DNA of 64,000 nt, taken from sequence record ON075799; one strand, 5' to 3'. The DNA comes from Escherichia phage vB_EcoM_TH18. Below, piece after piece: positions 569 to 53,415 of this stretch; position 1 is the first letter of the stretch; every line of letters begins with the position of its first letter. The notes beneath the pieces were generated by a model that worked only from the letters and a program-made list of their open reading frames with translations, searched no databases and had not been told where the DNA came from. A program made the translations under genes and the position numbers.

Positions 569-1988
569 CTAAATTTACAGCCCTTCCAAAAGGTGGTACA
601 AATTTATTATTTCCGCGACCACAAATAACCCAAAGAATATCCCATTTGCGTCCCCAATCTTTTTTCTTGTGGCTTAAATCCTCTATATATCCGTCTGTAA
701 AAATAATAACGTCTTTTGCATCAAAAATGTTATTTTCAATATACTCAAAAGCTGATGCTGCAAGAGTCCCACCAGTGGAATTTACTTTATAATCAAGCAT
801 TTCCTTAATATTTTCGTGTGTATAAACTTTAACCTCTCCGACTTTTGTTGACCAACAGAACAATGTCACGCGAAAAACTCGGTAAAGCTGGCATAATCCT
901 ACAATTTCTCCGAAGATTTTGTCTAAATTTGCCTTCGAAATTGATCCAGATACATCGAAGCCAATAACTATATCTATAGTATTATCGTACTCTCTTCCTG
1001 GTAAAACGATATGCTGTTTTTTGCCGATAGCTCCGTACTGTCGAAGTGCCTGTGTCATAGATCCAGACCTACGAGATGGCTTCCTGTATGTCAGGTTAGA
1101 CTTAATCCGAGAAAGCATACGCTGTTTGATTATCTGAAGATAATTTATGTGTGGTTTACGCATCCTCGCAATAACGTCACGTACCTCTTTCGGCCCCTCT
1201 CCTCCCGCTGCTTCCATTGCTGCTTCGATAAGACCAGATGACCACGACATATTATCATCTTTTTCTGCCTGGTTTGGCACTGGGTGAGGATCTTCATATC
1301 CCAGGGTATTACTGTCCTGATCATAATCCCCTATGTGTGTACCCATAGGTTTGCCAATAGACGGTTGGCCTTTGTTTATGAGACTGTAAATCTCCTCTGC
1401 TGTCATGCCGTGGAAATTAAAATCACAATAGCAATAAGCCATAAACCCAAACTCTTTATCTTTGTCAAAGGTTGTCTGTTTCCCTGTTGGGAAGAAACAC
1501 ATCTGGGTTGAGCGCGGTCCGAGATCAGACACCACCAAATCTGTATTGATATAGTGATCCGCTGCTGTGTTGTAGGTTTTAGAATCAAATGCCTTTCCAC
1601 GGGATAGATGGTCATTTGTAATATGACGTAGCTCGTGCATAAGAATAACAACAACCTCTTTGGGTGTCTTCTTACGGTAAAATACGTTCACATAGTCTTT
1701 ATAGTCATCTTTGTCTTGTTGAGACATTGTTGGGTGGTTATCCACACGTTCAAATACCTTCTTTTTCCTTTCTTCAGGCATACCCATAATAAACTCAGGG
1801 TTGAAGTAGAGGTTTTTGTGATCAGTGGCTGCTGTTGGCAACCATTTCCAGTTCGCAACTAAAGGAAGAGAACTTAACAAAGTACCGTAGAATGGTCGGT
1901 ACTTTAAAAGAGCTATTCGTGCAGATTGGATAACTTTTACAGCATCCTTCTCTAATCTGGCAATCATTTCATATTCGTCTTTTTGCAT
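552..1988 (-). CDS. vWA-domain protein with N-terminal HExxH metallopeptidase-like domain (CobT-like partner of MoxR/CobS ATPases)
   Basis: 'HELRH' zinc-binding-like motif and 'DVSGSIS' MIDAS (DxSxS) motif; RBS GGAGA upstream of ATG. Confidence 0.65.
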   Translation of the reverse strand: MQKDEYEMIARLEKDAVKVIQSARIALLKYRPFYGTLLSSLPLVANWKWLPTAATDHKNLYFNPEFIMGMPEERKKKVFERVDNHPTMSQQDKDDYKDYVNVFYRKKTPKEVVVILMHELRHITNDHLSRGKAFDSKTYNTAADHYINTDLVVSDLGPRSTQMCFFPTGKQTTFDKDKEFGFMAYCYCDFNFHGMTAEEIYSLINKGQPSIGKPMGTHIGDYDQDSNTLGYEDPHPVPNQAEKDDNMSWSSGLIEAAMEAAGGEGPKEVRDVIARMRKPHINYLQIIKQRMLSRIKSNLTYRKPSRRSGSMTQALRQYGAIGKKQHIVLPGREYDNTIDIVIGFDVSGSISKANLDKIFGEIVGLCQLYRVFRVTLFCWSTKVGEVKVYTHENIKEMLDYKVNSTGGTLAASAFEYIENNIFDAKDVIIFTDGYIEDLSHKKKDWGRKWDILWVICGRGNNKFVPPFGRAVNLDEHAK

Positions 1989-2007
1989 AATTATTCTCCA
2001 TACAAAA

Positions 2008-2031
2008 ATAGGCTATCTTTCGACAGCCTAT
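2008..2031 (-). terminator. possible intrinsic terminator/attenuator between minus-strand genes
   Basis: 7-bp stem ATAGGCT/AGCCTAT with extra inner pairs, followed on minus strand by TTTTTGT. Confidence 0.3.
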
Positions 2032-2039
2032 TATACTTG

Positions 2040-2303
2040 TTATTTTTTACTTGTAAATAATTCTATGGTATCAAGCGGCATAAAATTATTACCGCCAGTT
2101 AATCTAGCACCCCATACAGGAACTTGCTTTCTTGGTGGTTGGCTTGGGAACATAAAAAGTACGATAGCTTCTACAGAAGTTTTAATGTTCTTTGCATTTT
2201 TATAACGAACCCTATCACCAACTTTAAAATTTGGTTTATTTCCAGATTCAATCATCTGGGCTTCTTGAAGGGTAGCTGGTCTCCCAAGAATTTCTTCAAA
2301 CAT
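2040..2303 (-). CDS. hypothetical protein
   Basis: 87-aa ORF. Confidence 0.45.
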   Translation of the reverse strand: MFEEILGRPATLQEAQMIESGNKPNFKVGDRVRYKNAKNIKTSVEAIVLFMFPSQPPRKQVPVWGARLTGGNNFMPLDTIELFTSKK

Positions 2304-4777: not shown

Positions 4778-4990
4778 ATGTATTGTAAACAGCAATATAC
4801 CCACAAAGGGACAATCCAAAACAAAGATTTCGGTTGGGTGTGGGAAGAAAAGTTAAAAGATGAAGGAAACTATTGGGTATCTCAAGATATGCACTCCGCA
4901 TCGGGTAAGAAGGCAAAATACCGTAAGAGAGACGGTAAACGAGTGGGTGGTGATGATTATCTTGATTTAGAATCTATTAAGGAGTTGTAA
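4778..4990 (+). CDS. hypothetical protein
   Basis: 70-aa ORF. Confidence 0.4.
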   Translation: MYCKQQYTHKGTIQNKDFGWVWEEKLKDEGNYWVSQDMHSASGKKAKYRKRDGKRVGGDDYLDLESIKEL

Positions 4991-4991
4991 A

Positions 4992-5348
4992 ATGGCACAG
5001 TGGAAACATCGACTTGATTTACGTGATATCTGGAAAGGTAATCCAGTAGAAGGTAAGGTAGAGCCTTGGGCAGATGATAATATTCACCTGTTTGTAGATA
5101 TGCTTGTAAAAAGAGTAAAACGACTTTTACCAAAGCAAACTGATGAAGAGAATGCTGACTTCGATGGGTGGTTGTATGATATTCTTGAAGAAATGCAGCA
5201 TATCCTCACATATGAAGAATATTTGGAAATCTGTAGCAAAGAGGATAACCCCAACCTTATCGTGAGTCCTCTACAGCAGTTCAATCTGGCCTTGGATGAG
5301 TTCTACGACTGGTGCGATGAAAACAGAGTTTGGGTGGATAAGTGGTAA
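4992..5348 (+). CDS. hypothetical protein
   Basis: 118-aa ORF. Confidence 0.5.
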   Translation: MAQWKHRLDLRDIWKGNPVEGKVEPWADDNIHLFVDMLVKRVKRLLPKQTDEENADFDGWLYDILEEMQHILTYEEYLEICSKEDNPNLIVSPLQQFNLALDEFYDWCDENRVWVDKW

Positions 5349-5584: not shown

Positions 5585-6785
5585 TAGAAATATTTTTGAA
5601 GATCATCGTGTTACACTCCGTGATATTCCAAGCCTTATGAAATTTTGTAAGAAGGCAAACAAAGCACTTATGATGTTTGGTGGTGCTGGGCTTGGTAAGA
5701 GTCAAGTCATGAAGCAAGTTGCCAATGAGATGTTTGGTGAACGAGATGATAATCTCGTTGATTTTCGTCTTGCGGATAAAGATCCGACAGACGTAGTAGG
5801 TGTGCAGATTCCTGTAACAGACGATAATGGGAAAACACGTACAGTCTATGCGCTACCAGATTTCTGGCCAGAAGATCCAGATTGGGAAGGCATCATTTTC
5901 CTTGATGAACTTTTACATGCTGATAACTACTTACAGAAAGTGGCTTTCCAGATTGTTTTGGATCATAAAATTGGTAAGTACACCTTTCCAAAAGGCGCAG
6001 TTTTTGCAGCGGCAGGAAACCGTCCTGGTGATGGTACGGCAGTGACCATGATGGAAGCACCTTTGGCTAACCGTTTTATTGTTGTGGAACTTGATTACGA
6101 TGCCTCTGTGTGGATGCAGGATTATGCGTTGCGTAAAAATGTGCATCCATCAGTAATTGGTTTTATCCAGGCCAATCCCGATAAACTGGAAAACTTTGAG
6201 GCCATGTATGAGATTAACAGCCCTGCATATGCCACACCACGCACTTGGGTTACTGCAAGTGATATTCTGTATGCGTATGAGGATGGTGATCTTACTTCTC
6301 GCCTTGCAATGGCTGCTTTGCAAGGGTGTATTGGTGGGCCATTAATGAAAGAGTTATGGTATTACCATACTCGCGTTGCTGGTATGGTTCCCATTGAGAA
6401 AGTAATGGACGGTTCAATTAAAGAGCATACTGGGTCTGATAGCTCTGATGTGTTGTGGACGTTAGGATCACAGGGTTGCATCTGGCTACGTAAGGCTATG
6501 AAGAATACCAACTACACAGATGATCAGATTATTGACTTCTCAGCCAATTTCTTGCAATATCTGTATGATAACTTTGGTAAAGATGATGCTCATTCCAACC
6601 GTGATTTTGTATCATCTGTCTTCATGACGTTTATTAATGACAGCTCTACAGGGAAGGGTATTTTGTTAGATGGTCTTCGTGACAGACTGCCAGCGAAGTT
6701 ACTTAAGAAGTATCCTGTTGTTATGCAGATTATTACTGAATATCATAAGAACTTTGCAAAAGATGTAGATGCAATTTTAAATTAA
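5577..6785 (+). CDS. CobS/MoxR-like AAA+ ATPase
   Basis: Walker A 'GGAGLGKSQ', Walker B 'IIFLDELLH'; size and layout of phage CobS-like ATPases. Confidence 0.7.
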   Translation: MSSRNIFEDHRVTLRDIPSLMKFCKKANKALMMFGGAGLGKSQVMKQVANEMFGERDDNLVDFRLADKDPTDVVGVQIPVTDDNGKTRTVYALPDFWPEDPDWEGIIFLDELLHADNYLQKVAFQIVLDHKIGKYTFPKGAVFAAAGNRPGDGTAVTMMEAPLANRFIVVELDYDASVWMQDYALRKNVHPSVIGFIQANPDKLENFEAMYEINSPAYATPRTWVTASDILYAYEDGDLTSRLAMAALQGCIGGPLMKELWYYHTRVAGMVPIEKVMDGSIKEHTGSDSSDVLWTLGSQGCIWLRKAMKNTNYTDDQIIDFSANFLQYLYDNFGKDDAHSNRDFVSSVFMTFINDSSTGKGILLDGLRDRLPAKLLKKYPVVMQIITEYHKNFAKDVDAILN

Positions 6786-7419: not shown

Positions 7420-7598
7420 AGGTTAAAATGATTTCTGATTTTTCCGATGTTGCTGGATATCCAAAAACAGGAGATATTCTTGAAGTAAGAGAAGAAATCT
7501 TTAATGGTAGTTTTCTTGAGTGTTACTCTTGCGAATGGAATGGGAAAAGACTTGATATCTATCCATACGAATGCGAAGAGGTATCAGACAATGCTTAA
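7416..7598 (+). CDS. hypothetical protein
   Basis: 60-aa ORF, translationally coupled. Confidence 0.4.
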   Translation: MKVKMISDFSDVAGYPKTGDILEVREEIFNGSFLECYSCEWNGKRLDIYPYECEEVSDNA

Positions 7599-8112
7599 GT
7601 ATAAAGTTGGTTGCTTAATAGAGGCAGCACTTAAAAGGGATGTTAATGTGATAGCTCATGGTTGTAATACATTTTGCACCATGGGGTCTGGAATTGCTAA
7701 AGAAATAAAGAATGCATTCCCAAAAATGTATGCTGAAGATTTAAAGACAGAGAAAGGTGATCGAACAAAACTGGGCAGTTATACTTGGGCTGTCATGAAC
7801 GAAGGTAAGCTGGCGGGTTTTAATTTGTACACACAATACGGCTATAATGGGCGTAGAATGGGTGTTAGAGATTTAAATTATAACGCCCTTTACGATTCTT
7901 TAGCAGCAATGCGAGATTGTTTGCAAAGGCACACAGATGGCTTTATGTCTGATTATAAGATCGGGCTGCCAAAAATAGGTGCTGGGCTAGCAGGTGGGGA
8001 TTGGAAAATCATAGAAACTATGATAGAATCTGTTCTCCATGATTGTGATGTGACAATTTATGTTTTAAATAAAGAGGAGATCCCAGATGGCAAAAGAGAA
8101 CATGCATCCTGA
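7591..8112 (+). CDS. macro-domain protein (ADP-ribose binding/hydrolase family)
   Basis: 'VNVIAHGCN...MGSGIAKEI' and 'IGLPKIGAGLAGGDW' macro-domain signatures; ATG at 7591 with GAGG RBS. Confidence 0.65.
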   Translation: MLKYKVGCLIEAALKRDVNVIAHGCNTFCTMGSGIAKEIKNAFPKMYAEDLKTEKGDRTKLGSYTWAVMNEGKLAGFNLYTQYGYNGRRMGVRDLNYNALYDSLAAMRDCLQRHTDGFMSDYKIGLPKIGAGLAGGDWKIIETMIESVLHDCDVTIYVLNKEEIPDGKREHAS

Positions 8113-8281
8113 TATTGCTTACGATAAAATTGCGGAAGCAATTAAAAGTATTGACCCAAAAATTGTAGATGTGCTGGATCGTAAAGATGCTATGAGCGCA
8201 ATTTATGACGCTTGCTATGAAGTTCTGTGGCAAGATGGTATGGAAGATATTGACGAGGTAGGGGCCAATGATGGAGAGTAA
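8087..8281 (+). CDS. hypothetical protein
   Basis: 64-aa ORF. Confidence 0.4.
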   Translation: MAKENMHPDIAYDKIAEAIKSIDPKIVDVLDRKDAMSAIYDACYEVLWQDGMEDIDEVGANDGE

Positions 8282-8654
8282 ATCTGTGACAGGCTTATCG
8301 AAAGATACATATATTTGTGGGAAGAGATATGCTGGTATCCTGTTTGGTGCTGAACCCTATTTTGGTTTTGGTTATACAAAAGATGTTCGATGCATTTGTG
8401 GATACTTAGCAGATGATCTCAAAAAGCGTGGATTTAGTGGTTCTAGTATCAGGACTTCTGTTGTCGAAAGTCTGATTATGCACGATGGAGAAATCTATGC
8501 TATTACGATGAACAGCGCCTATCGCTTAGGTAGCCTTCAATTACAACATTTTATCTCCAGTCCTGTGTGGAGTCAGGAAATCACGAAACTTCTTGCCCAG
8601 GCAACTCTTGGTGTGACTTTTATTAATAAGGAAGATAGTAATGCAAGCAACTAA
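8268..8654 (+). CDS. hypothetical protein
   Basis: 128-aa ORF. Confidence 0.45.
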   Translation: MMESKSVTGLSKDTYICGKRYAGILFGAEPYFGFGYTKDVRCICGYLADDLKKRGFSGSSIRTSVVESLIMHDGEIYAITMNSAYRLGSLQLQHFISSPVWSQEITKLLAQATLGVTFINKEDSNASN

Positions 8655-9675
8655 GTACCCAAGCACTAGTCAATTTCGCAATGTTATCCGAGCGGTTAAT
8701 GACCGTCTGACTTATGATGGTCGTGATGAGAATGGCAATATAAAGCGTAAGGTTGCCTCTCCAGATCAATATCTCATTTCTTATGTAGGAACAGTTAAAA
8801 TTCACGGGACTAATTGCCGTGTAGTCTTTAATTCTGAAAATGAGGTTGTATACCAGTCCAAAGAACGCGTTTTGTCTTTGGAGGAAGACAATTATGGGTT
8901 TATGGCCTTTATGGTTGAAAAAGACCATAAACCCCTGCTGGGGCAAGTCAAGCAGATCTGCGAAGATCGGGGTATTGAATTTAAGTTCCCAGTAGAAATC
9001 GCTGGGGAATTTGCAGGGAAAGGTATCCAGAAAGGTGTTGCGGTATCTGAAATCATGCCTTTCTTTACTATTTTCCGTGTTGCAGTGGGGAAAGAAAATG
9101 ACCATCGGAAATGGCTAGCTTTAGACGATATTCTTGGCATTGGATTACCAGAACAACGTATTTATAATATTTTAACTTTTGGTAAGTGGGAACTGGATAT
9201 TCCTTTTAACATGCCAGAGACAGTGCAATCAGAAATTGCACAGATTACCGAAGGTGTGGAAAAAGAGTGCCCAGTAGGTAAATATTTTGGCGTATCTGGT
9301 GTTGGTGAGGGTGTGGTATGGACACCTAAAGATCGTCACTTGGCACATGTTTCTTCACTTTGGTTTAAAGTGAAAGGGCAAAAACATTCTGTCTCTAAAG
9401 TGAAAACCCTAGCTGCTGTTGATCCTGTGAAACTGCAATCTATCAAAGATTTTGTGGAGTATGCAGTTACTGAGAACCGTTTACGACAAGGGTTGCAAGA
9501 AATTGGATTGGACATCGCATCTCTGGGGGCATTTATCGCATGGGTTAACCGCGATATCAACAAAGAAGAAGCAGATGTGCTGGAAGCCAACTCTCTTTCT
9601 ATGAGAGATGTGGCGAAGTTCACAACAAACAAAGCCCGTAGTTGGTATATGGAACAACTTAACGAGGTGTCTTAA
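8641..9675 (+). CDS. RNA ligase, Rnl2-like (nucleotidyltransferase)
   Basis: motif I 'KIHGTN', motif IV 'EGVVW', motif V 'FKVKG'. Confidence 0.7.
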   Translation: MQATKYPSTSQFRNVIRAVNDRLTYDGRDENGNIKRKVASPDQYLISYVGTVKIHGTNCRVVFNSENEVVYQSKERVLSLEEDNYGFMAFMVEKDHKPLLGQVKQICEDRGIEFKFPVEIAGEFAGKGIQKGVAVSEIMPFFTIFRVAVGKENDHRKWLALDDILGIGLPEQRIYNILTFGKWELDIPFNMPETVQSEIAQITEGVEKECPVGKYFGVSGVGEGVVWTPKDRHLAHVSSLWFKVKGQKHSVSKVKTLAAVDPVKLQSIKDFVEYAVTENRLRQGLQEIGLDIASLGAFIAWVNRDINKEEADVLEANSLSMRDVAKFTTNKARSWYMEQLNEVS

Positions 9676-9846
9676 TGGCTTTAATTGTTTCTACAACACA
9701 CACAACTGTAGAACGTGGTATGTTAAAGGCAAAGTGTGACACAATTATTTTTGAAGATGAAGAACAGGGCAGAAAGTTTATTGAAGACAATAAAACATTT
9801 GTGTACTCTGTTCAGAAAGCACCTATTGTTAAAGAGAAACAAAACA

Positions 9847-10188
9847 ATGATTACAATTAATGGTAATACAATTTCTGGAAACTATACCAATGGTAGTATC
9901 TCTATCACTACTAAGGGTGATAATGTATATATCAATGGTGATTTAGTTCACACCACAAGCGATAAAAACATCACAGTTATTATCAAAGGTGATGCTAAAG
10001 AGGTACGTACAACATCAGGTGGTATCAATGTCTATGGAAATGTCTCTAATGGCGTGATCTCAACATCTGGGGATATTAATGTTGAAAAAGATATCTTAGG
10101 CAATGTGTCTTCAGTGTCTGGGGATGTCTGCGCAAATACAATCCATGGAAGTGTGAACACAATATCTGGAGATATTACCCATCGTTAA
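9847..10188 (+). CDS. small repeat protein with beta-solenoid-like periodicity
   Basis: 113 aa of reiterated 'SG(D/G)INV...GNVS' units; start chosen at internal ATG 9847. Confidence 0.45.
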   Translation: MITINGNTISGNYTNGSISITTKGDNVYINGDLVHTTSDKNITVIIKGDAKEVRTTSGGINVYGNVSNGVISTSGDINVEKDILGNVSSVSGDVCANTIHGSVNTISGDITHR

Positions 10189-10202
10189 CAGAAAGCCCCT
10201 TT

Positions 10203-10748
10203 ATGGGGCTTATTTGTCTGGAGTTAGTTTTGAAAATAAGATCTTTATTATTTGCTGTTTGCTGTGCACTTTCTCTGTCTATTACCCCTGTTCTAGCCAA
10301 AGAAAGTGCAAAGAAGCCCAGAGTTCTTCATGTTTGTAAGAAGAACGACACAGAGCTTAATATTCTTGCCTGCAATATGTATAAAGAAGGAAGAGGCGAA
10401 GGCGATTATGGAATGATGGGTGTTGCGTTTGTCACGTTGAACAGAAAGGATGACAAAAATTTCCCTCATACTATCAAGAAAGTAGTTTATCAACTTGGGC
10501 AATTCTCTTGGACATTCGGTGGACAATCCTTTAAAGTCTATGAAAAGGACAGATGGTTGAGAGCTAGATTTTATGCTAAAATCTTGATGAGGTTGCATAA
10601 AGACCACAAAAGTTTATACAAAGCTCTTGACTACACAAAATCAGCAACGTACTATCATGCAACTACTGTTAGGCCATCTTGGGCAAAAGTTATGGTGAAA
10701 ACAGTGAAGGTTGGGAATCATATTTTTTACAAGCATCCTGACGTATAA
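10203..10748 (+). CDS. secreted SleB-like cell-wall hydrolase (Hydrolase_2 family), endolysin candidate
   Basis: N-terminal signal-like hydrophobic segment; 'KEGRGE...GMMGVAFVTLNR...FPHTIKKVVYQLGQFS' SleB signature. Confidence 0.6.
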   Translation: MGLICLELVLKIRSLLFAVCCALSLSITPVLAKESAKKPRVLHVCKKNDTELNILACNMYKEGRGEGDYGMMGVAFVTLNRKDDKNFPHTIKKVVYQLGQFSWTFGGQSFKVYEKDRWLRARFYAKILMRLHKDHKSLYKALDYTKSATYYHATTVRPSWAKVMVKTVKVGNHIFYKHPDV

Positions 10749-10768
10749 CTAGTTCATAGAGGTATTGA

Positions 10769-12769
10769 ATGATTATTCAAAGATCTGACAACAAAGTTCA
10801 GGTAACTGGGAACGTAGAAAGATACCAAGCATCAATTGCAATGAATCCTGAGACGTTCAGTATTCTTATCGACGGAATTTATAAAGATAAACCTTTAGCA
10901 GCAGTACGAGAGCCTCTCTTTAACGCTGTAGATGCCCATACAGAGGCAGGGTGTTCTGATAAACCAATCATCATCCACTCACCAACAGACTTGGAGCCTT
11001 GGTATTCTGTTAAGGATACAGGGTTAGGTATGGATCATGAGATGGTAACACGTACATTCATGATGATTGGTGAGTCCACAAAAAGAAACAGTAATGATCT
11101 GGTTGGTGCGAAAGGTATTGGATCAAAAGCACCTCTTGCAGTCACAGATATGTTCACAGTTGTTTCTGTTAAAGACGGAGTGAAAACAACATATTCTGTT
11201 CACAAAAACAGCGGAATACCAGAGGTTGTACCTTTATTCTCTTGTGAAACAACAGAGGAGAATGGTGTAGAAATTAAATTTAACGTAAACACTTGGGAAA
11301 CAGGAGTTTATCGTCAGGCCATTGTAAAATGCCTTCGCTATGCTAAATTTCCATATATTATTAATGATCCTTTTGTTAAAACGCAGATTGAAGATCGTAC
11401 TTATCCTGTTCAGTATCGTTATGAGGATGAAGAGACTGGCTGGGTTCTTGAGATGTATAGTAGCATGTCGAGCAACGCTGATAGTGTTGTTATCATGGGG
11501 CAACAACCATATCTCTCCGATTATCTCTCAACTCGTAAAGAACTGCCCATGATGACGGTATCTATCCCTATTGGGGATTGTAATGTAGATCCAGGCCGAG
11601 AATGGACAGTGGAAGGAAAGAATGACGGAGGATTCCGTGATAAACTTGAAAATTTTGTGACTAAAGCTATCCGACTCCGCGGAGAAGAAATCACAAAAGA
11701 ATTAAGCGATCTGCCAACTTTAAAAGCAGTTCTTGAACATATGAAGTATGTTGGTGGTTATTTCGCTACAAAGTATGGTGCTGCATTTATTGCAAATAAG
11801 TTCAAGAATTATACTGATGGTTCTTACATAGACCACTGTGAAACATATGGTGGCGAAGGCTCACGCCGTGGTAAGGATGAGAAATATTCATACGCAGAGT
11901 TGATGAATGGTCATCCACTGGTTTACAATGATGATCACAAGTATGTGCGCTCTAAATGTAACTGGCTTGCAGAGAAGTTCGGTAAGAGATCGTTTATAAC
12001 CGATGCTGATTACGCTCTGTCCTTATACAGTGATAAATTCTTTGAAGGGATGATTTTCAAGTTATCTGAGCTTGAAAAACGACCAGTGCAAAAAGCAGAT
12101 AAAAAGTATGGTGGCTATGGTTATTACGAACCTGGTCATAAAGTTTGGATAATTAACCAAGATGGCCTCGTAGATGTAACACGTATTTCCCGTGCTCAAT
12201 TCGAGGATATTGAGACGGCTATGGTCTACTGGGGTGGGCAGGTGAAAGGATTATGCCCGTTAGGATACGTTTCCAATCTTAGAACAGTTTGGAGAAAGCA
12301 ACCACCAACATTTCTTAAGAATCTTGGTGTAGCTGGTAAGTTATATATTGTGCCTTTAAACAGATCAAGTTGGCTGCCAGATGAGGCGCGGGTTATAACT
12401 GAGGAGGATATCCATGCTCTTGCAAAAACTAATCTTCTTGAATATCATTTATACCAAGAAGTTGGGAAAGATCATGAGTATCATAACATTGTTAAAGAGC
12501 TTAGCTATTTTGGTGTGGTGGTAGCTAGTTTCCCAAAATGGGAGATGAAGGTAAACATACCCAGTTATTATTCAGTCCCTGGCTACGAAGATAGCCGTGA
12601 GAAAGCATTAGGGATGATTGAGTCTCGGAAGAGAATTGGTAAAAAGCTGCTACAGATTAAGAAAGATCGCTACCCATTGTTAAAATACATTGATGTTAAG
12701 CATTTCAATACTCCAGAGATGCTAGAGTATCGTAAATTTATTGACAGCAAAGGAGAAAAAGATGAGTAA
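10769..12769 (+). CDS. rIIA: rIIA-like protein with N-terminal GHKL (Hsp90/histidine-kinase-like) ATPase domain
   Basis: Bergerat motifs 'EPLFNAVDA', 'DTGLGMD', 'GAKGIGSKA'; followed by rIIB-like gene. Confidence 0.6.
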   Translation: MIIQRSDNKVQVTGNVERYQASIAMNPETFSILIDGIYKDKPLAAVREPLFNAVDAHTEAGCSDKPIIIHSPTDLEPWYSVKDTGLGMDHEMVTRTFMMIGESTKRNSNDLVGAKGIGSKAPLAVTDMFTVVSVKDGVKTTYSVHKNSGIPEVVPLFSCETTEENGVEIKFNVNTWETGVYRQAIVKCLRYAKFPYIINDPFVKTQIEDRTYPVQYRYEDEETGWVLEMYSSMSSNADSVVIMGQQPYLSDYLSTRKELPMMTVSIPIGDCNVDPGREWTVEGKNDGGFRDKLENFVTKAIRLRGEEITKELSDLPTLKAVLEHMKYVGGYFATKYGAAFIANKFKNYTDGSYIDHCETYGGEGSRRGKDEKYSYAELMNGHPLVYNDDHKYVRSKCNWLAEKFGKRSFITDADYALSLYSDKFFEGMIFKLSELEKRPVQKADKKYGGYGYYEPGHKVWIINQDGLVDVTRISRAQFEDIETAMVYWGGQVKGLCPLGYVSNLRTVWRKQPPTFLKNLGVAGKLYIVPLNRSSWLPDEARVITEEDIHALAKTNLLEYHLYQEVGKDHEYHNIVKELSYFGVVVASFPKWEMKVNIPSYYSVPGYEDSREKALGMIESRKRIGKKLLQIKKDRYPLLKYIDVKHFNTPEMLEYRKFIDSKGEKDE

Positions 12770-13754
12770 TCCTTTATTCATGTCACGTCGTGAAGCTCGT
12801 GAATACGCTAAGAAAAATAATATGGTGGTTGTTGATCGTGGTCTAAATGTTCTAAAACGCTGGACAGTTGCACCCAAAAAAGGAATGCCGACAACCAAAA
12901 AGGCTAAGGAAGATCCTGTAGGTATTATGAAGCCAGTGCATACTCTTGCACAACCAATTGTCCTTGTGACCCAAGACAATATCCATATCACTTTGTTAAA
13001 TGGTGAACAATATACTCTAAATAGTAGCAGCCCCATCTTTAAAGAAGTTGGTGTTATCCTTTGGACAGGAGGGATAGATGCTGCTGTACAACGTATTTTA
13101 AAAGAGAAAGAAGCAGAAAAGAAAAAGACCATTGATTTTGGCGATAATTTAGTGTTGATAGATAGTGTTTTGTATTGGCACGGTCAAAAACAGGAAAGCA
13201 GTATTGCTAAGCGAATCATTAAAGATATTGAGAATGATTGCTTTGACGAACGATATGTCAAATTCATGCAGAAGTTGCTACACAACCCGTCGTATGCTTC
13301 TGTTAAAATGCTTTATGATTTTGTAAAACATAATGATCTGGAGATCCTTGAAAACGGAAATATTAAGGCATACAAGAAAATTAAGGCAACTGTAGATGGA
13401 CCACGAGATTGCTATACAGGTAAAGTTCCTAATTATAAAGGGCAAGTTATTTCCATGCCGCGTAATATGGTTGAGGATAATCCCAATAGAACATGTAGCC
13501 AAGGTTTGCATGTTGCATCTATTGACTATGCGGCTACCTTTGAGAAGACTTCAAAGGAACTTGTAGAAGTATCTGTGGATCCGGCAGATATTGTCAGTGT
13601 CCCTTATGACTATAACCAGAAAAAATGCCGTTGCTGTCGCTATGAAGTTCTGACAGGAACACCAAAACCGGTAGGTGCGCCAGATATTATTGTCATTGGT
13701 GTACAGGGTAAAATTCTTGAAGAGATTTATCTACAAGAATCTAAGGAGGACTGA
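12762..13754 (+). CDS. rIIB: rIIB-like protein
   Basis: C-terminal 'MPRNMVEDNPNRTCSQGLHVAS...DIVSVPYDYN' resembles T4 rIIB (from memory); ATG overlaps rIIA stop, RBS AAGGAG. Confidence 0.6.
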   Translation: MSNPLFMSRREAREYAKKNNMVVVDRGLNVLKRWTVAPKKGMPTTKKAKEDPVGIMKPVHTLAQPIVLVTQDNIHITLLNGEQYTLNSSSPIFKEVGVILWTGGIDAAVQRILKEKEAEKKKTIDFGDNLVLIDSVLYWHGQKQESSIAKRIIKDIENDCFDERYVKFMQKLLHNPSYASVKMLYDFVKHNDLEILENGNIKAYKKIKATVDGPRDCYTGKVPNYKGQVISMPRNMVEDNPNRTCSQGLHVASIDYAATFEKTSKELVEVSVDPADIVSVPYDYNQKKCRCCRYEVLTGTPKPVGAPDIIVIGVQGKILEEIYLQESKED

Positions 13755-15058
13755 TGTCTCAATACGGGGTTGGCGTTGAAGATGCTCTTGGCGCTATAAT
13801 GTCCGGTGAAAATGTGTTTATCAGTGGTTATGCAGGTGCTGGAAAGAGTCATACCATAAAAACTATCCAATCCTTATACGCAGGTTCAGTTTTGACAGTA
13901 GCCCCTACAGGGGCTGCTGCCATTAATGTGGATGGTATGACAGCACACAGAGCTTTTGGACTCTCTTTAGGTGTGTCCACTAAAAAAGATGCAGAAGAGA
14001 TAAAGTCAAAAGCTAAGAAATTGCTTAAAAGTAAAGCATTGAAAATACTTATAATCGAAGAAATAAGCATGTTCAGAGCCGACAAACTTTGGGAGATGGA
14101 TATGAAGTGTCGGCTGGCACGTAAAAAACCTAAAGAACCTTTCGGTGGTTTGCAGGTGTGTATGTTCGGGGATTTCTTACAGAATCCACCTGTTTTAAAA
14201 GGTGAAGAAAAAGAGATATACTATCAGTTCCACGACACAGAACTTTGTTGTTTTTCTAAAACATGGAAAGAATTGAACCCATATCCTGTATTTCTTGATA
14301 AAATCTACAGGCAAAGCAGTGTTCATTTTTCAACGCTTCTTAATTGCCTTCGCAAGGGTGAACGTATTCCAGAGATTGTTGAGTTTATGAATACTTATTG
14401 TTACAACATGGGAAAACCCTTGGATGCTATAACAATAACTTCAACAAACGCAGCAGCAGACAAAATAAACAAAAAACGTTTTGATGCAATACCCGGAATC
14501 CCAACAGTTTATAAGGCAAAAAAGACAGGGCAATTTAACCAAACACCTGTACCGGAAGAGTTGTATCTGAAAGAGGGAGCGCAGGTGATGATTACTGTCA
14601 ATGATCCTAAAGGACTAAATGAACCAAGCTATGTGAATGGTTCCCGTGGAGAGATTGTTGAACTACGTAGGTACAGTGTTAAAGTCCGTCTTGAGAATGG
14701 AGATATTGTTGACGTAGAACCTTATGTGTGGGAAAATGTTGAGTATAACCCCATAAAGGTGAAAAACCCAGATGGTACAATAACTGAAGAAATTGAGAAG
14801 ATTATCATTGGTGAGTACAGGGCTTTACCGATTCGCCTTGGGTGGGCTGTTACAATACACAAAGCACAAGGATTAACATTACCGGAAGTTAATGTTGACT
14901 TTGGCAATGGGACTTTTGCACCAGGCATGGCATACGTGGCTTTTAGCAGAGCAACAAGTGCAAAAGGATTAAGGTTATTACGTAGGATCAGGGATAAAGA
15001 TATTATCGTTGATCAACGTCTTGTTAAGTTTTATGAAGAGACTTTCCCTGGTAAGTAG
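13754..15058 (+). CDS. dda: Dda-like SF1B (Pif1/RecD-family) DNA helicase
   Basis: Walker A 'GYAGAGKSH', 'VAPTGAAA', C-terminal 'TIHKAQGLT...AYVAFSRAT'; 434 aa. Confidence 0.7.
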   Translation: MSQYGVGVEDALGAIMSGENVFISGYAGAGKSHTIKTIQSLYAGSVLTVAPTGAAAINVDGMTAHRAFGLSLGVSTKKDAEEIKSKAKKLLKSKALKILIIEEISMFRADKLWEMDMKCRLARKKPKEPFGGLQVCMFGDFLQNPPVLKGEEKEIYYQFHDTELCCFSKTWKELNPYPVFLDKIYRQSSVHFSTLLNCLRKGERIPEIVEFMNTYCYNMGKPLDAITITSTNAAADKINKKRFDAIPGIPTVYKAKKTGQFNQTPVPEELYLKEGAQVMITVNDPKGLNEPSYVNGSRGEIVELRRYSVKVRLENGDIVDVEPYVWENVEYNPIKVKNPDGTITEEIEKIIIGEYRALPIRLGWAVTIHKAQGLTLPEVNVDFGNGTFAPGMAYVAFSRATSAKGLRLLRRIRDKDIIVDQRLVKFYEETFPGK

Positions 15059-15068
15059 GAGATAGCTG

Positions 15069-15494
15069 ATGACCTCATATTCAAAAAGTGAACTTTTAAA
15101 GAAATTTAAAGCTGAATTAAAGGGTTGGTGGGATAATAAAGAATCTCATCATGGTAAAGACACCACACATATCCAGATGGCATCGGTTGATGAAATGATG
15201 GCTGCATTAGGATATGCACCTCGTTCACTACCTAATTACCCAGATGTTAAGGATGGTCGTTTTGGATATTATCGAGCCTGGGGTTCTGAAAGACACCCTC
15301 TAAACCTGTCTTTTGAAGATGCTGTGTCACTTCATAATAATTGTGTTTGTAAAGCTCGTGTTTTAGCACCGGACGCTATCAGCTTTGCTTTACGGAGTAA
15401 AATCGTACAACAGGTGGCTGTCCAGCGTTTGAAAGGTAAAGGTGAGAAAGGGCAGATCAAATCCCAGAAGCGTTGGATTAAGTTCGAGGACTGA
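15069..15494 (+). CDS. hypothetical protein
   Basis: 141-aa ORF. Confidence 0.5.
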   Translation: MTSYSKSELLKKFKAELKGWWDNKESHHGKDTTHIQMASVDEMMAALGYAPRSLPNYPDVKDGRFGYYRAWGSERHPLNLSFEDAVSLHNNCVCKARVLAPDAISFALRSKIVQQVAVQRLKGKGEKGQIKSQKRWIKFED

Positions 15495-15496
15495 TT

Positions 15497-15868
15497 ATGG
15501 AAATATCTACAAGTAAAAGTAAAGGCACAGTAGCAGAAAAAACTTTCCACCGACTCATGGAGATTTCTGAAGAACTCTCTGCAAAAGGTGAGGATCGTAT
15601 GGCGAGTGATGTTAAGGATGCTGCACATGTAATAAACTCCCTGGATGTTATTATCTATCAGTCTTTACAAGCCTGTAAAAGAATGGGTTTTGAATATGAC
15701 CCGACCCTCAAAGAGGGTGAGTTTGCACAAGCGTTCTTCTGGTTGCAGGAAAAAGGCCAGGACGCATATAATTCTCGTATGGCAGACACAAAGTATCTCT
15801 TCTATAAAGGTGTAGAAGAGAAAATAACTGATCTGTTTAACTACTTTAAGGAAAATAAAGATGTTTAA
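15497..15868 (+). CDS. hypothetical protein
   Basis: 123-aa ORF. Confidence 0.5.
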   Translation: MEISTSKSKGTVAEKTFHRLMEISEELSAKGEDRMASDVKDAAHVINSLDVIIYQSLQACKRMGFEYDPTLKEGEFAQAFFWLQEKGQDAYNSRMADTKYLFYKGVEEKITDLFNYFKENKDV

Positions 15869-16043
15869 AGTCGAAGACTTTACAGATTTGAGTCAAGTTT
15901 CAACTGAAAAATTGTTGAAACTACGAGATGTTGCACGAGACAACTTTCTTGAAGCAAAGTTGTCTGCCGAAGAGTCGTGGCAGAGATACGAAGACATTCT
16001 AAATGAAATTAAGGAGCGAGTGCATGTTGAAGAAGCTCTTTAA
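15861..16043 (+). CDS. hypothetical protein
   Basis: 60-aa ORF. Confidence 0.4.
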   Translation: MFKVEDFTDLSQVSTEKLLKLRDVARDNFLEAKLSAEESWQRYEDILNEIKERVHVEEAL

Positions 16044-16350
16044 GTGGTTTTTCCCACCACAACAAAAAGCCGAAAAAGTTTTTGATTTTACTGAGTATAG
16101 GGGTAATGGTCATGATATTACACTGCGTCTCAACCAGTCTGGTGAGGTTGCAGAAGCTGTTATCATCTTATCCGAGGATGTAGAAAAACCGGAGAATGGT
16201 GATTTTGTTATCGTCAATCTTGATGACATTTTTGGTGGTGGGAAAGAAGTGACGACATATGTGATTAGTCACATAGAGTATGTTTCTTCTGAGATCTCAA
16301 GAGCAAGTTTAGTCTTGAGGAAGGAGGATACTAATGCAGACAAAAGCTGA
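16024..16350 (+). CDS. hypothetical protein
   Basis: ATG at 16024 preceded by AAGGAG; upstream in-frame ATG at 16003 less likely. Confidence 0.45.
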   Translation: MLKKLFKWFFPPQQKAEKVFDFTEYRGNGHDITLRLNQSGEVAEAVIILSEDVEKPENGDFVIVNLDDIFGGGKEVTTYVISHIEYVSSEISRASLVLRKEDTNADKS

Positions 16351-16807
16351 TATCTTAATCGAAGATATTGAAAAACTGGCAAAGAAAGCCACTAGAGGGC
16401 ACTGGTGGATAGATAGACATGGACATTCGATGGTATCCTTTCAGGATGATAAGGAAGTAAAAACTGTTTTCATCACAGATCCTAAAATGGGTCCGGCAAA
16501 GAGACATGAGGGAACAGGGAATTTATCTCATTGGCAAAATGACTACGATGCCAGTTACATTGCCACCGCAAGCCCAGATAATGTTCTGTACATTATTAAT
16601 GAGCTAAGAGGAAAACGAGATGCTTATGATAAAATTAAAGAGCATCTCGACAACTTAGACGGTTATGGCGCAGAATTGAAAAAGCGTGTAGAAGCCGAAC
16701 TATATGCTAATGGTTGTCAGAGTTCTCTTGTTCACATATTAGCTTTTGTGGATGCCTTGTTAAAAGAAAATATTGAGTTAAAACAAGAGTTGGGGGAGTA
16801 TGAATAG
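16334..16807 (+). CDS. hypothetical protein
   Basis: 157-aa ORF. Confidence 0.5.
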   Translation: MQTKADILIEDIEKLAKKATRGHWWIDRHGHSMVSFQDDKEVKTVFITDPKMGPAKRHEGTGNLSHWQNDYDASYIATASPDNVLYIINELRGKRDAYDKIKEHLDNLDGYGAELKKRVEAELYANGCQSSLVHILAFVDALLKENIELKQELGEYE

Positions 16808-17084
16808 CAAATCCCCTATGGTAGACATTGAGTTCGAATACGACCATGAGGATCTAGGATTGGTGGTTGTCGAAGCTCTGTTTTCTGTTCAAAAACCTGA
16901 CTTCTTCAGTAAAGAAAGCGACTGGGATTATAACGGTTTTCAGGAACTAGAATATTGCGTTGTATTCAAAAACGGTAAGCAAATCTATCTTGACATTCCA
17001 GATGATGTGCTATACCATCATTTAAGAGAATACCTAAGAGATCTAGAGATAAACGGGTGTTACAATAGAGAAGAAGGTTTCTAG
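16800..17084 (+). CDS. hypothetical protein
   Basis: 94-aa ORF. Confidence 0.45.
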   Translation: MNSKSPMVDIEFEYDHEDLGLVVVEALFSVQKPDFFSKESDWDYNGFQELEYCVVFKNGKQIYLDIPDDVLYHHLREYLRDLEINGCYNREEGF

Positions 17085-17088
17085 AATT

Positions 17089-17310
17089 ATGGTTAAAAAC
17101 ACTGTTAAACTCATTGAGTTCAAAATTAGCAAAACAAAAAGAGAAGAGGTAGAGAGCAAACTGGCCGAACTTCTTGATGATGGTTATGACATTGCAGGAC
17201 AGCATGAAGCTGAAGGTTGGCTGGTGTATACTTTAGTGAAAAGGGTGGCCCAAGTACAAGACATTCCTTACGGGGCTGATGGAAGCCCAGTCCACTCGGC
17301 GTTGCATTGA
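17089..17310 (+). CDS. hypothetical protein
   Basis: 73-aa ORF. Confidence 0.4.
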   Translation: MVKNTVKLIEFKISKTKREEVESKLAELLDDGYDIAGQHEAEGWLVYTLVKRVAQVQDIPYGADGSPVHSALH

Positions 17311-18079
17311 TTTCTGGTATACTCAAAAGGCCCACGTTACGGGCCTGTTTTCTGGTATGGGAGGTGTATTGAGTGACACAGTTTTATGCATGTTTGACGG
17401 ATCAGGTATCATGGGCCACGAATGGGCAAAAAATGGGCACAAAGTGATATGCCTTAATTATGATGGCGCTGATCACGGCGGTTATGAAAGTATCAGAATA
17501 AAACACAAAAACATAGAATACATTAATGTTTGGATAGATGACCAGTTTAACCCAGTAGAGATAGGGCTTTGTAAGCCAAGTATTATATTCGCATTTCCAC
17601 CATGTACAGACATGGCTGTTAGTGGTGCAGCGCATTTCGCAAGAAAAGCTGCAAAAGACCCTTTATTCCAGATAAAGGCTGTAAATACAGCAAAGGTGGC
17701 AGCAAGGTTGGCAGATGAATACGGCTGCCCTTACATGATAGAAAATCCAGTTAGTGTTCTATCTTCTCTGTGGCGTAAACCAGATCATTCATTTCATCCT
17801 TATGAGTACGGCGGGTATCTATCAGAGAATGATGTTCATCCATTTTTTCCAGAATACATAAAACCAAGAGATGCCTACCCTAAGAAGACTTGTTTGTGGA
17901 CAGGTAATGGTTTTAAGATGCCGGAGAAATTACCTGTCCCCGTGTTAAGCGGGTATTCTGATCAACACCTAAAGCTGGGTGGGAAATCAAAAAAGACAAA
18001 GGTTATAAGGTCGCTAACCCCAAGAGGATTTGCCAAAGCCGTATTCCTATATAATGATTTTAGGAGGGTTGGTGGATAA
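17279..18079 (+). CDS. DNA (cytosine-5)-methyltransferase-like protein (short)
   Basis: motif I-like 'LFSGMGG', motif IV-like 'FPPCTDMAVSG', motif VI-like 'ENPVSVL'. Confidence 0.4.
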   Translation: MEAQSTRRCIDFWYTQKAHVTGLFSGMGGVLSDTVLCMFDGSGIMGHEWAKNGHKVICLNYDGADHGGYESIRIKHKNIEYINVWIDDQFNPVEIGLCKPSIIFAFPPCTDMAVSGAAHFARKAAKDPLFQIKAVNTAKVAARLADEYGCPYMIENPVSVLSSLWRKPDHSFHPYEYGGYLSENDVHPFFPEYIKPRDAYPKKTCLWTGNGFKMPEKLPVPVLSGYSDQHLKLGGKSKKTKVIRSLTPRGFAKAVFLYNDFRRVGG

Positions 18080-21353: not shown

Positions 21354-23390
21354 ATGAAAGGACTTTTTTTAGCCGATACAGAGGCTGATGGATTATTAGA
21401 AGAGGCAACTAAATATCACTGCACACTTTTTAAAGAATATGCTGTAAATAACTGGGTGTTGTTTCTCGATCCTGCTCACAAGGAATATCAGAGTGCAGTT
21501 AATTTTGCACGCAGCAAGGAAGGTGTTAATTTACGAATCCTTTCTTATGATGATTTTTACTCTTGGTTACAGACCGAACCAAGAGGGATAGCAATACATA
21601 ACCTGTTCGGCTATGACTTACGCCTGTGGAAAAAACTTTCTGGGATTGAATATGATATGTTCAAAGACCCAAAATGCATGGGGACGATAGGTAATAAACA
21701 GGTAAATCTTTACGACACTCTTTCAATGAGTCGTGTTCTTTACCCAGACCGCCCATTGCCTAATGGCTGCCCAGACTCTGTATTGAACCCTGTAACAGGA
21801 AAACGTGACAGGGTTGGGCCACACGGCTTATTGGCATGGGGTTATCGTGTAGCAAACAAGAAAGTGCAGATTGATGATTGGCGTAATCAGCCATTGTGGG
21901 AATATGTAAACCGTGTATGGGAAGACGTTATCATTAACGAACTTGTGTGGAAAGCTCTTATTGATGAGTCAAATGGTACGCGATGGCCTGATGACAAGCA
22001 GTTTATGTATACTGATAAACCTCACGGGATGCACCAGATTAATTGGAAAAATGCATTACGTAGGAGAATGCTCACAGACTATTTGATGATAGAGCAAGAA
22101 ATACAGGGTGTATACTTTAATCGGGAGGAGGCAGAAAAATTAAGAGATCGCATAGATAAGATGATGCGAGAAATTGAAGAAGAGGTAGAACCACTTCTTC
22201 CAAAAAAAGAGATGACGAAATCCCAACAACCAAAATTCCCAGCTAACCCTTTTGACACAGCGGGCAATATATCTCATCATGGGTGGAATTGGTTGGAATA
22301 TAAACTTGGCTATCCTGTTAACAGAGAAGCTCTGGAGTTCAAGGCTCCACCAAAAACAGCCTTTAAGAGTAACGGGGATGTAAGTGCAGCAGGGGAGAGA
22401 TATTGCATCCAGAATGGCATTGAAGATCCGGCTTTATACGGTGATTTCATTCGTTCCCAGCGAACCAAAGAGAACACACTCGAACCTTTACCGCCAGATC
22501 TTCTAGAGAAGGCTAAAGAAGACCTTCGAAATAGAAAAATGCCAGATTTAATGGTTCCAATGAAAATCTCTAATCAAGATGATATTAAAAAATATTTGAT
22601 CAAAGATGCTGGTTGGAAACCTACACTGTGGCGTGTAAAAGATGTTACTAAGGATCAATTTAAAAAGGCCCGTGAAGATTCTGAAATCGATGTACTAGTT
22701 AAGAAGTACATAGAAGAGTTGGCAGAATCTGAATATAAATCTCTTATTCTTGAATACCTTAATGATTCAGATGAGAAATTCAACATTTCAGAACGTAAGT
22801 TTGACCATCGCCATGCATCTGAAAGGGGTTATTCAGAGATATTTAAGAAATTTCGGCGCAAGGCACGCCAGTTACCGACATCTCCTCAACTAAAAGATAA
22901 TTTTGGGCATCTGTGCCCAAATCTGGAGAAAATTGATGTGCATATGGCAAAACAGATTGTTAAGTGGCTATCACTTCGTAACAGGCGATCTGTTTTAGAC
23001 CCAATGGATGAGGATAAGACGGATACAGGGTTATTAAATCACCCTCGTTTAGACATTGACGGAAAACTCCCAGCACGTTTTTCTGGAATCACTAACACGG
23101 GCAGGTGCAAGCATACTGTTTGCGCAAACATGCCCAAGCCTGATCCGAAGGTCTTGTTGGGAAAAGAAATGCGGGGTCTTTGGACAGTCCCTGAAGGCTA
23201 CTACCTGATGGGTTGTGATGGATCTAACTTAGAAGGTATGATTGCCGCAGCAGGAGCTTTTGAGTTTGATGGCGGTGAATATTTACGTATCATGATGGAA
23301 GAGGATGCCCATGAACGAAATGCAAGAGCATACACAATAGCCGCAGGAAAGGAGGTAACACGCTCTGGAGGAAAGGGGATTACGTATGGT
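21354..23390 (+). CDS. DNA polymerase (family A, T7 gp5-like) exon 1: 3'-5' exonuclease + polymerase motifs A and first half of B
   Basis: N-term 'MKGLFLADTEADGLLEEATKYHC' like T7 gp5 'DIEANALLESVTKFHC'; motif A 'CDGSNLE'; ends '...RSGGKGITYG' then stops in all frames; ATG 21354 with AGGAGG (ORF-track start 21312 less likely). Confidence 0.7.
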
Positions 23391-42981: not shown

Positions 42982-43063
42982 GATTATGCCTCCTCTTGTA
43001 AATTATTATAAGATGTGGTTATTTTACCACAATATGTCTTAATTATAAATAGTAAACACAAAT

Positions 43064-53350: not shown

Positions 53351-53415
53351 GAGAACTCCCGTTAAGGTATTTTACCACATTATTCAAGCAAAATCAATAA
53401 TTAGGAATACGATTG

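Follow-up and report, generated by a model that had tools for sequence, protein, structure and literature searches.

A predicted exported SleB-like peptidoglycan hydrolase upstream of rIIA and rIIB in an Avunavirus that also carries a PVP-SE1gp146-type endolysin

Introduction

Lys44 of the Oenococcus phage fOg44 is an example of a secreted endolysin with a signal peptide, and P1 Lyz and R21 of phage 21 are examples of SAR endolysins. In the Vequintavirinae, SleB-like homologues have been described in all genera (PMC7344957). For one of them, CB7_83, a signal peptide and toxicity on expression in Escherichia coli (data not shown) were reported, and phage CB7 also encodes an M15 peptidase (PMC7344957). 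An "obvious lysin," gp89, was described for rV5 (PMC3606486), and both BME3 and PVP-SE1 have been described as having "two endolysins." PVP-SE1gp146 is a modular endolysin whose muralytic activity was demonstrated by biochemical experiment (PMC3352856). [quoted passage not shown] Our literature searches on the function of phage SleB-like proteins yielded only annotations, the single toxicity remark on CB7_83, and such domain surveys. A putative endolysin (gp28/gp29) is mentioned in a transcriptome paper on PAK_P3/PAK_P4 and was left out of the evidence considered here.

The presence of a SleB-like hydrolase with a predicted export signal is correct and already known in this phage group. In this study, a corrected start of the gene, a conserved layout of hairpin, Shine-Dalgarno sequence, and TTG, and the presence of a PVP-SE1gp146-type endolysin in the same phage are added.

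Results

The window, which is the whole stretch of 64,000 nucleotides analyzed here, corresponds to bases 1-64000 of OK136180.1 (Escherichia phage 18-1-2 clone Scaffold1, partial genome), a record assigned to the genus Avunavirus of the Vequintavirinae. Comparison of positions 9000-13800 revealed 100% identity to the same coordinates of OK136180.1 and 95.5% identity to Escherichia phage Av-05. The open reading frame listing of the window contains an ORF of 181 aa, counted from an ATG, at 10203..10748 on the plus strand. The corresponding gene is annotated as "hypothetical protein" in the 18-1-2 record. Its orthologues in Av-05 and PVP-SE1 are labeled "cell wall hydrolase SleB" or "endolysin," and the family is named "endolysin" in PHROG and RefSeq. 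The coordinates of the gene, of its neighbors, and of the features discussed below are given in Table 1. The gene located directly upstream has a counterpart in the same position in PVP-SE1 and Iguana_ER37. On the downstream side, the rV5-like phage naam shows the same synteny of SleB-like gene, rIIA, and rIIB, and the position of the SleB-like gene upstream of rIIA/rIIB is kept in Avunavirus and Vequintavirus.

Table 1. Features of the SleB-like locus and of the second lysin gene (window coordinates unless another record is named)
Feature	Coordinates	Strand	Details and basis
RNA ligase gene	8641-9675		Upstream of SleB-like gene
Upstream gene, Gly/Asp-rich repeat protein of unknown function	9847..10188	+	phrog_3163
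Terminator-like GC-rich hairpin	10193..10211	+	AAGCCCC-tttat-GGGGCTT, then ATTTGTCT; terminator scan, RNA fold
Shine-Dalgarno GGAG	10220..10223	+	6 nt upstream of TTG; read from sequence
Predicted CDS of exported SleB-like peptidoglycan hydrolase	10230..10748	+	TTG start, TAA stop, 172-aa precursor; homologue alignment
Predicted Sec signal peptide	10230..10298	+	M(TTG)KIRSLLFAVCCALSLSITPVLA; n/h/c layout by inspection, conserved small-x-Ala
Segment between invariant Cys codons	10335..10373	+	C36 (10335-10337) and C48 (10371-10373), precursor numbering; alignments A1, A2
Active-site motif E-G-R-G-E	10386..10400	+	Alignment with SleB 4f55/4fet
Presumed catalytic Glu	10386-10388	+	E53 of 172-aa precursor = E62 of 181-aa ORF
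Hydrolase_2 (PF07486) domain match	10395..10730	+	Pfam; AF2/Foldseek support for fold
rIIA	10769-12769	+	phrog_612, 5e-124; directly downstream of SleB-like gene
rIIB	12762-13754	+	phrog_609, 3e-67; then helicase gene
GH19 endolysin, 234 aa, annotated "endolysin"	OK136181.1 29281-29985	-	Pfam, PDB, and PVP-SE1 matches

Analysis of the deduced protein against Pfam revealed a single match, to the Hydrolase_2 family (PF07486), at residues 65-176 with an E value of 4.9e-20 and 72.5 bits against a gathering cutoff of 27. The match spans model positions 1-100 of 100. The ORF also matched PHROG 938 ("endolysin") at 1.1e-25 and, at the sequence level, the crystal structures of the SleB catalytic domain from Bacillus (4f55, 1.1e-7; 4fet, 8.9e-7). 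An AF2 model built on 13 homologues reached a mean pLDDT of 83.8. When this model was used for a Foldseek search of the PDB, the only significant matches were again 4fet and 4f55 (probability 1.00), with TM scores of 0.74-0.79 on the target and an rmsd of 2.6-2.9 Å. Alignment with SleB placed YKEGRGE of the phage protein on YGESRGE of 4f55/4fet. In alignment A1, residues E62, R64, G65, and E66 (numbering of the 181-aa ORF) were invariant among 18 homologues. We take the catalytic Glu of SleB to be the first Glu of this motif, following the structure papers of 2012. [quoted passage not shown] The score against NCBIfam TIGR02869, the equivalog model of true SleB, was 49.8 bits and lies below the cutoff of 236.5. 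A Pfam scan found no PG_binding_1 domain ahead of the catalytic domain; the N-terminal part consists of the predicted signal peptide and a short basic linker. Score, motif, and fold place the protein in Pfam Hydrolase_2; it is not a true SleB.

The ATG of the ORF is almost certainly not the start of the gene, which comparison of homologous sequences places at an in-frame TTG at position 10230, codon 10 of the ATG ORF. This start is favored by the aligned N termini of the homologues, by the GGAG located 6 nt upstream, by the position of the ATG in a hairpin loop, and by the recurrence of the layout in other phages. All homologues of the clade start with MK(I/L/V)K, and this start aligns exactly at the TTG. 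The spacing of GGAG to the start is identical in PVP-SE1, Iguana_ER37, and naam. The hairpin lies directly after the stop codon of the upstream gene, was the top match of the terminator scan, and folds with -16.3 kcal/mol (z = -2.1); the ATG at 10203 is located inside its loop. The order of stop codon, hairpin, T-run, GGAG, and non-ATG start recurs across phages. In PVP-SE1, it reads AGCCCC-tttctt-GGGGCT-TTTTTAATTT, followed by GGAG and TTG, and the loop contains no ATG. In the Klebsiella phage Iguana_ER37, hairpin, GGAG, and TTG follow one another, and the ATG of the hairpin is out of frame. The rV5-like phage naam has the hairpin and GGAG followed by a GTG start. The phi92-like phage Eryne uses a TTG start too, located behind a sigma-70-like promoter (TTGCAA-17-TACAAT). 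The hairpin does not represent a regulator specific to the SleB-like gene, since rIIA, rIIB, and the helicase gene lie downstream of it too.

The start of the gene exists in at least four versions in the databases, one of them with the signal peptide cut off and the gene split. In GenBank, the 18-1-2 record uses the TTG (10230-10748), the Av-05 record the ATG, and the PVP-SE1 record an upstream TTG that overlaps the Shine-Dalgarno sequence. In the Iguana_ER37 record, the gene is misannotated as two CDS with a truncated ATG start, and the signal peptide is lost. An earlier note, made from the letters of the window alone, had reported a SleB/Hydrolase_2 signature in a gene located among non-late genes beside rIIA/rIIB. 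Both observations were borne out, the first by the Pfam score, the fold match to SleB, and the intact E-x-R-G-E motif and the second by phrog_612 and phrog_609 downstream and the RNA ligase gene upstream. The note had also preferred a TTG at about 10231 to the ATG at 10203. The preference for TTG stands on the homologues, the GGAG, and the hairpin loop, and its position is corrected to 10230.

The second scaffold of 18-1-2 (OK136181.1, 54,435 bp) was found in a search for which the query was the portion of Av-05 missing from scaffold 1. The endolysin encoded on this scaffold contains a Glyco_hydro_19 domain (9e-10) and a weak match to PG_binding_1, has no signal sequence, and has matches among phage endolysins of known structure (9ms7, 2.6e-31, and also 4ok7). 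Comparison with gene 146 of Salmonella phage PVP-SE1 revealed 80.9% identity over 100% of the length. Because a GH19 endolysin is present in the same phage, the SleB-like protein is predicted to be a second, exported muralytic enzyme. As judged from the sequences, it is most likely an auxiliary muralytic enzyme, and the terminal endolysin is more likely the GH19 enzyme of the PVP-SE1gp146 type. Given that the phage has the latter enzyme as well, the label "endolysin" does not single out the SleB-like protein as "the endolysin."

A different reading is that the SleB-like protein is the functional endolysin of the phage, or a co-equal one, which would be secreted early through Sec and restrained in the periplasm until the membrane potential is lost through the action of a holin or pinholin, as with Lys44. 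We consider this unlikely, although several observations are in its favor. The family carries the label "endolysin" in PHROG and RefSeq, a signal peptide would permit export independently of a holin, and CB7_83 was toxic in E. coli. PHROG places the neighboring rIIA and rIIB in its lysis category, as lysis inhibitors. Three unannotated ORFs behind the Hydrolase_2 gene of PS24 are possible partners in a lysis cassette. Furthermore, Pfam scans of 10 and 41 further proteins of the 64-kb window detected no other peptidoglycan hydrolase, and a scan of 51 proteins encoded in the remainder of scaffold 1 and in the Av-05 backbone detected none either. Against this reading, the same phage has an 81%-identical orthologue of the validated PVP-SE1gp146, and a canonical lysin was also kept in every related lineage examined. 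The phage naam has the lambda-type lysin naam_206 as well as the SleB-like protein, and Phapecoctavirus combines Phage_lysozyme with Hydrolase_2. No homologue of naam_206, the rV5-type lambda-like lysin, was found in the window or the Avunavirus backbone. The SleB-like gene also lies outside any holin-endolysin-spanin cassette: no holin or spanin adjoins it, and the homologues of Rz/Rz1-type spanins adjoin the terminase gene at 67.6-68.3 kb of scaffold 1, beyond the window. Its location in the replication block and the lack of a late-promoter motif upstream, described below, likewise argue against a principal role in lysis.

Another candidate for the endolysin was rejected. Av-05 carries a T4 e-type lysozyme (Av05_00178) together with a T4 rI antiholin in an 11-kb T4-like block. 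This block is most likely an assembly chimera, as indicated by its 100% identity to the T4-like phage phiC120, the same O157:H7 host, the identically worded feature names, and its absence from 18-1-2. Av-05 was assembled from 36-nt reads.

From the methyltransferase gene (8268) to the helicase gene, all genes are co-directional and separated by gaps of 0-41 nt or overlapping. The only structured gap in this stretch is the hairpin in front of the SleB-like gene. For rV5, the late-promoter motif TGGTAAAATA has been described (PMC3606486). Exact copies of this motif were found in intergenic positions on the minus strand, upstream of structural genes (43020-43029 and 53368-53377), and no copy was found upstream of the SleB-like gene. 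A scan for sigma-70 promoters gave 42 matches compared to 37 +/- 6 in shuffled sequence; because the matches do not exceed those in the shuffles, the scan is silent on timing. Early or middle expression at a low level may reasonably be expected for the SleB-like gene, with the timing read from its position only. A low protein level is probable because of the terminator-like hairpin that has to be read through and the weak start codon. Hydrolase_2 genes also occur among ligase and RecB genes in the Nankokuvirus PS24, near an exonuclease gene in the T5-like phage HildyBeyeler, and near exonuclease and RNase H genes in Sugarlandvirus.

Such a context would also suit a non-lytic role, in which the exported enzyme remodels peptidoglycan for superinfection exclusion, for enlargement of the cell, or for assembly of an envelope-spanning complex, or acts on the envelope or against host defense in connection with rIIA/rIIB. 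The placement upstream of rIIA/rIIB in two genera, the early-type position of the gene in several unrelated families of virulent phages, and the coexistence of a complete canonical lysis set are compatible with this reading. However, the synteny with the rII genes is absent in phi92-like, T5-like, and other phages, and CB7 was reported to be without rIIA/rIIB homologues (PMC7344957). We regard a non-lytic role as improbable.

Translated from the TTG, the N terminus reads MKIRSLLFAVCCALSLSITPVLA-KE, where the last hyphen marks the predicted cleavage site; it can be divided into MKIR, SLLFAVCCALSLSI, and TPVLA-KESAKK. On rule-based inspection, the n-region is basic, the h-region spans 14 residues, and the c-region has a conserved Pro at position -4 followed by Val at -3 and, at -1, Ala. 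The predicted signal peptidase I site follows VLA, between codons 23 and 24. A small-x-Ala site is present in all 13 members of the clade (VLA, ATA, VSA, ALA, TLA, or AVA); Ala at -1 together with V, A, or T at -3 is kept in every one of them. Equivalents of the site were recognized in distant homologues, namely, PVVA-AP in naam, PVVA-QA in Eryne, NSHA-TY in the T5-like phage, and AQA-KI in Sugarlandvirus. The AF2 model shows a helix for residues 4-15 and a linker of low confidence for residues 16-26. Searching 1.84 billion representative proteins with a profile returned 20,096 relatives. An N-terminal hydrophobic segment was present in 131 of the 150 nearest full-length ones and a later membrane segment in 13. 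The proportion of 131 of 150 indicates that the family is exported. The predicted mature enzyme has 149 aa, a mass of 17.5 kDa, and a pI of 9.9. Residues C36 and C48 are invariant columns in both alignments A1 and A2 and probably form a disulfide in the periplasm, which would fit an oxidizing compartment.

The conserved small-x-Ala site favors a cleaved signal peptide over a SAR anchor, and this preference rests on that site. The summed Hessa-type hydrophobicity of the core, +1.05, is marginal and near that of SAR domains; it does not separate the two. A bacterial lipoprotein was also rejected, as no lipobox ([LVI][ASTVI][GAS]C) is present; FAVC and AVCC carry V or C at -1 and are not conserved among homologues. 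No pinholin or holin gene adjoins the SleB-like gene, whose neighbors encode a soluble repeat protein and rIIA, with no small transmembrane ORF adjoining. The weakest of the alternatives, which we regard as very improbable, is a SAR endolysin with a Hydrolase_2 fold that keeps an uncleaved tether. The Cys of the hydrophobic segment and the Cys pair around the catalytic Glu would then provide disulfide caging of the P1 Lyz/ERA103 kind, with activation on release. In its favor are the marginal score, the 19-residue length of the segment with its many Ala, Ser, Thr, and Cys residues, one segment Cys kept by 13 of 13 members of the Avunavirus/Seunavirus-like clade, and the position of C36 and C48 on either side of the active-site helix. 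Against it are a small-x-Ala site conserved throughout with Pro at -4, a segment without Gly, the lack of an adjacent pinholin gene, and the absence of the segment Cys from rV5-, phi92-, and T5-like homologues, in which the two mature Cys are nevertheless present or a pair is placed differently.

These results bear on two further claims of the earlier note. The signal-like N-terminal segment that it had noticed is a real hydrophobic segment, with an n/h/c layout and a conserved small-x-Ala site. It had then suggested a signal-peptide or SAR-type endolysin and named the demonstration of another endolysin gene as an outcome that would speak against this. The cleavage site favors the signal peptide; the identity as endolysin is weakened by the GH19 lysin in the same phage, as another gene is indicated to be the endolysin by strong homology (80.9% to PVP-SE1gp146).

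Discussion

The SleB-like protein is very probably an exported and active peptidoglycan hydrolase. The proposal as a whole, in which a SleB-type wall hydrolase is exported by Sec, cleaved, and employed in an auxiliary role, is held with moderate confidence. The domain, the fold, the conservation of motif and start site, the synteny, and the presence of a second lysin are established by the analysis, and export, cleavage, the disulfide, the timing and level of expression, and the auxiliary role are points that we infer.

According to this proposal, the gene would be transcribed with the replication/rII block and not with the late structural genes, by reading through the terminator-like hairpin. 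Translation from the TTG at 10230 would yield the 172-aa precursor, whose residues 1-23, a Sec-type signal peptide, would carry it across the inner membrane. Cleavage by signal peptidase I after VLA23 would release the 149-aa mature enzyme, soluble and basic, into the periplasm, where it would fold and probably form one disulfide between the two invariant Cys. By analogy with SleB, the enzyme may cut the glycan strands of peptidoglycan by means of the conserved Glu, as a lytic transglycosylase or muramidase. It would thereby contribute an auxiliary, holin-independent weakening of the wall. Final lysis would be performed by the cytoplasmic GH19 endolysin as the principal enzyme, together with the Rz/Rz1-like spanins.

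A bolder form of the idea may be mentioned as a long shot. Many large virulent phages (Vequintavirinae, phi92-like, and T5-like) might keep a delayed-early, Sec-secreted muramidase beside their canonical endolysin, coupled to rIIA/rIIB in the Vequintavirinae, for a dedicated function other than final lysis; conditioning of the envelope, control over when lysis occurs, superinfection exclusion, and anti-defense are examples. Alternatively, Avunavirus and Seunavirus might use the Cys of the signal segment for a disulfide switch, which would be SAR-like in a new fold. A second SleB-type hydrolase, predicted to be exported, is encoded in the early-gene regions of many large virulent phages of Gram-negative hosts. 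As a predicted exported, basic muramidase of 17.5 kDa, the enzyme might also interest enzybiotic work.

The closest relatives of the SleB-like protein are its orthologues in the Vequintavirinae. Av05_00150 of Av-05 is 95.6% identical, and the "cell wall hydrolase SleB" of PVP-SE1 is 59% identical; CB7_83 of Pectobacterium phage CB7 and CR3_087 of Cronobacter phage CR3 are further orthologues. The Hydrolase_2 domain and the signal peptide are common to these proteins, with no substantive difference. PVP-SE1 and Iguana_ER37 share with the gene studied here the start of hairpin, GGAG, and TTG as well as the upstream neighbors.

The catalytic domain of Bacillus SleB (4F55 and 4FET) has the same fold and the E-x-R-G-E motif but is only 26% identical. 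Unlike true SleB, the phage protein is without an N-terminal PG_binding_1 domain. The specificity of SleB is for muramic-delta-lactam cortex, which cannot be the substrate here because the phage infects a Gram-negative host. Within the same phage, the GH19 endolysin differs from the SleB-like protein in that it has no signal peptide and carries an N-terminal peptidoglycan-binding domain.

With Lys44, P1 Lyz, and R21, the SleB-like protein would share holin-independent export of a muralytic enzyme through the Sec system of the host, as predicted from its N terminus. It differs from them in fold, which is Hydrolase_2 here and lysozyme or amidase in those enzymes. It also differs in genomic setting, since the gene is located outside a lysis cassette, has no adjacent holin or pinholin gene, and coexists with a separate canonical endolysin in the genome.

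The T5-like phage HildyBeyeler (bas33_0077), Sugarlandvirus, and PS24 ("sleB") encode proteins with the same domain and an N-terminal export signal, and the genes are likewise located among DNA-metabolism genes. These proteins are about 30-40% identical, their genes start with ATG, and they have no rII neighbors. The PS24 protein has a longer N terminus that resembles a membrane anchor, and the three unannotated ORFs behind its gene are small to medium in size. The Hydrolase_2 gene of PS24 might be the endolysin gene of that phage, and the family may thus well be able to fill that role.

Organization of the region upstream of the SleB-like gene

The SleB-like gene is preceded by a hairpin resembling a terminator, with GGAG immediately behind it and then a TTG or GTG start codon. 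This layout is conserved in Avunavirus, Seunavirus (PVP-SE1), Iguana_ER37, and Vequintavirus (naam). Since rIIA, rIIB, and the helicase gene follow the hairpin with no further obvious promoter, the entire downstream block may depend on read-through of this structure. In Iguana_ER37, the annotation of the orthologue as two CDS is wrong. The first CDS is a spurious 49-aa ORF that begins at an out-of-frame ATG within the hairpin; the second, labelled "endolysin," begins at an internal ATG, so that the product lacks its signal peptide as well as the first helix.

Analysis of the upstream genes revealed a Gly/Asp/Asn-rich protein with the repeats …GDNVYINGD…SGDINVEKD…SGDVCAN…SGDITHR, which resembles a beta-helix and gave no Pfam or NCBIfam match. 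PVP-SE1 and Iguana_ER37 likewise carry this gene in front of the SleB-like gene. The genes for a macro-domain protein, a PHROG "methyltransferase," and RNA ligase 2 are tightly grouped just 5' of this region and may constitute an RNA-repair or ADP-ribose-related module.

Table. Location of features in the window and in related phage sequences
Feature	Sequence	Position	Strand	Remark
Macro-domain protein	Window	7591-8112	+	Pfam Macro, 7e-5
Small protein and RNA ligase 2	Window	8268-9675	+	Small protein: methyltransferase per PHROG
Repeat protein, 113 aa	Window	9847-10188	+	phrog_3163 (function unknown)
Hairpin, GGAG, non-ATG start	Window	10193-10223
	PVP-SE1 (L016)	~4975-5015
	Iguana_ER37 (L018)	~1489-1530
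	naam (L006)	~5985-6024
SleB-like orthologue	Iguana_ER37 (OR472445.1)	1497-2055		Annotated as two CDS
DNA polymerase gene, split	Window	21354-24484	+	21354-23393 and 24113-24484
HNH-type ORF	Window	23519-23974
rV5 late-promoter-like motif, exact	Window	43020-43029, 53368-53377	-	TGGTAAAATA
GH19 endolysin, 234 aa	18-1-2 scaffold 2 (OK136181.1)	29281-29985	-	PG_binding_1 + GH19
Large terminase gene, three pieces	Further 18-1-2 sequence (L004)	13775-17488	-

GH19 endolysin and the Av-05 reference genome

The GH19 endolysin of the same phage shares 80.9% identity with PVP-SE1gp146. Its gene lies between a PhoH-like gene and anaerobic ribonucleotide reductase genes and is therefore also outside any lysis cassette.

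Comparison of Av-05 (NC_025830.1), the type of the genus Avunavirus, with the window, scaffold 2, and the terminase-carrying 18-1-2 sequence suggests that this reference genome, assembled from 36-nt reads, is chimeric and incomplete. Av-05 contains an 11-kb T4-like block (103.1-114.1 kb), 100% identical to phage phiC120, with genes including e lysozyme, denV, tk, and the rI antiholin. Approximately 25 kb of 18-1-2 scaffold 2, carrying ribonucleotide reductases, thymidylate synthase, the GH19 endolysin, and DNA ligase, is missing from Av-05, and the head/terminase block occupies a different position than in 18-1-2.

Late-promoter-like motifs and split genes

The rV5 late-promoter-like motif occurs twice without mismatch, each time in an intergenic gap just 5' of structural genes. 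Allowing at most one mismatch, 19 matches were detected (8 ± 3.4 expected). The two parts of the DNA polymerase gene are separated by an HNH-type ORF, and an HNH homing endonuclease lies between the large terminase pieces. A split large terminase gene with an HNH homing endonuclease has also been reported in rV5.
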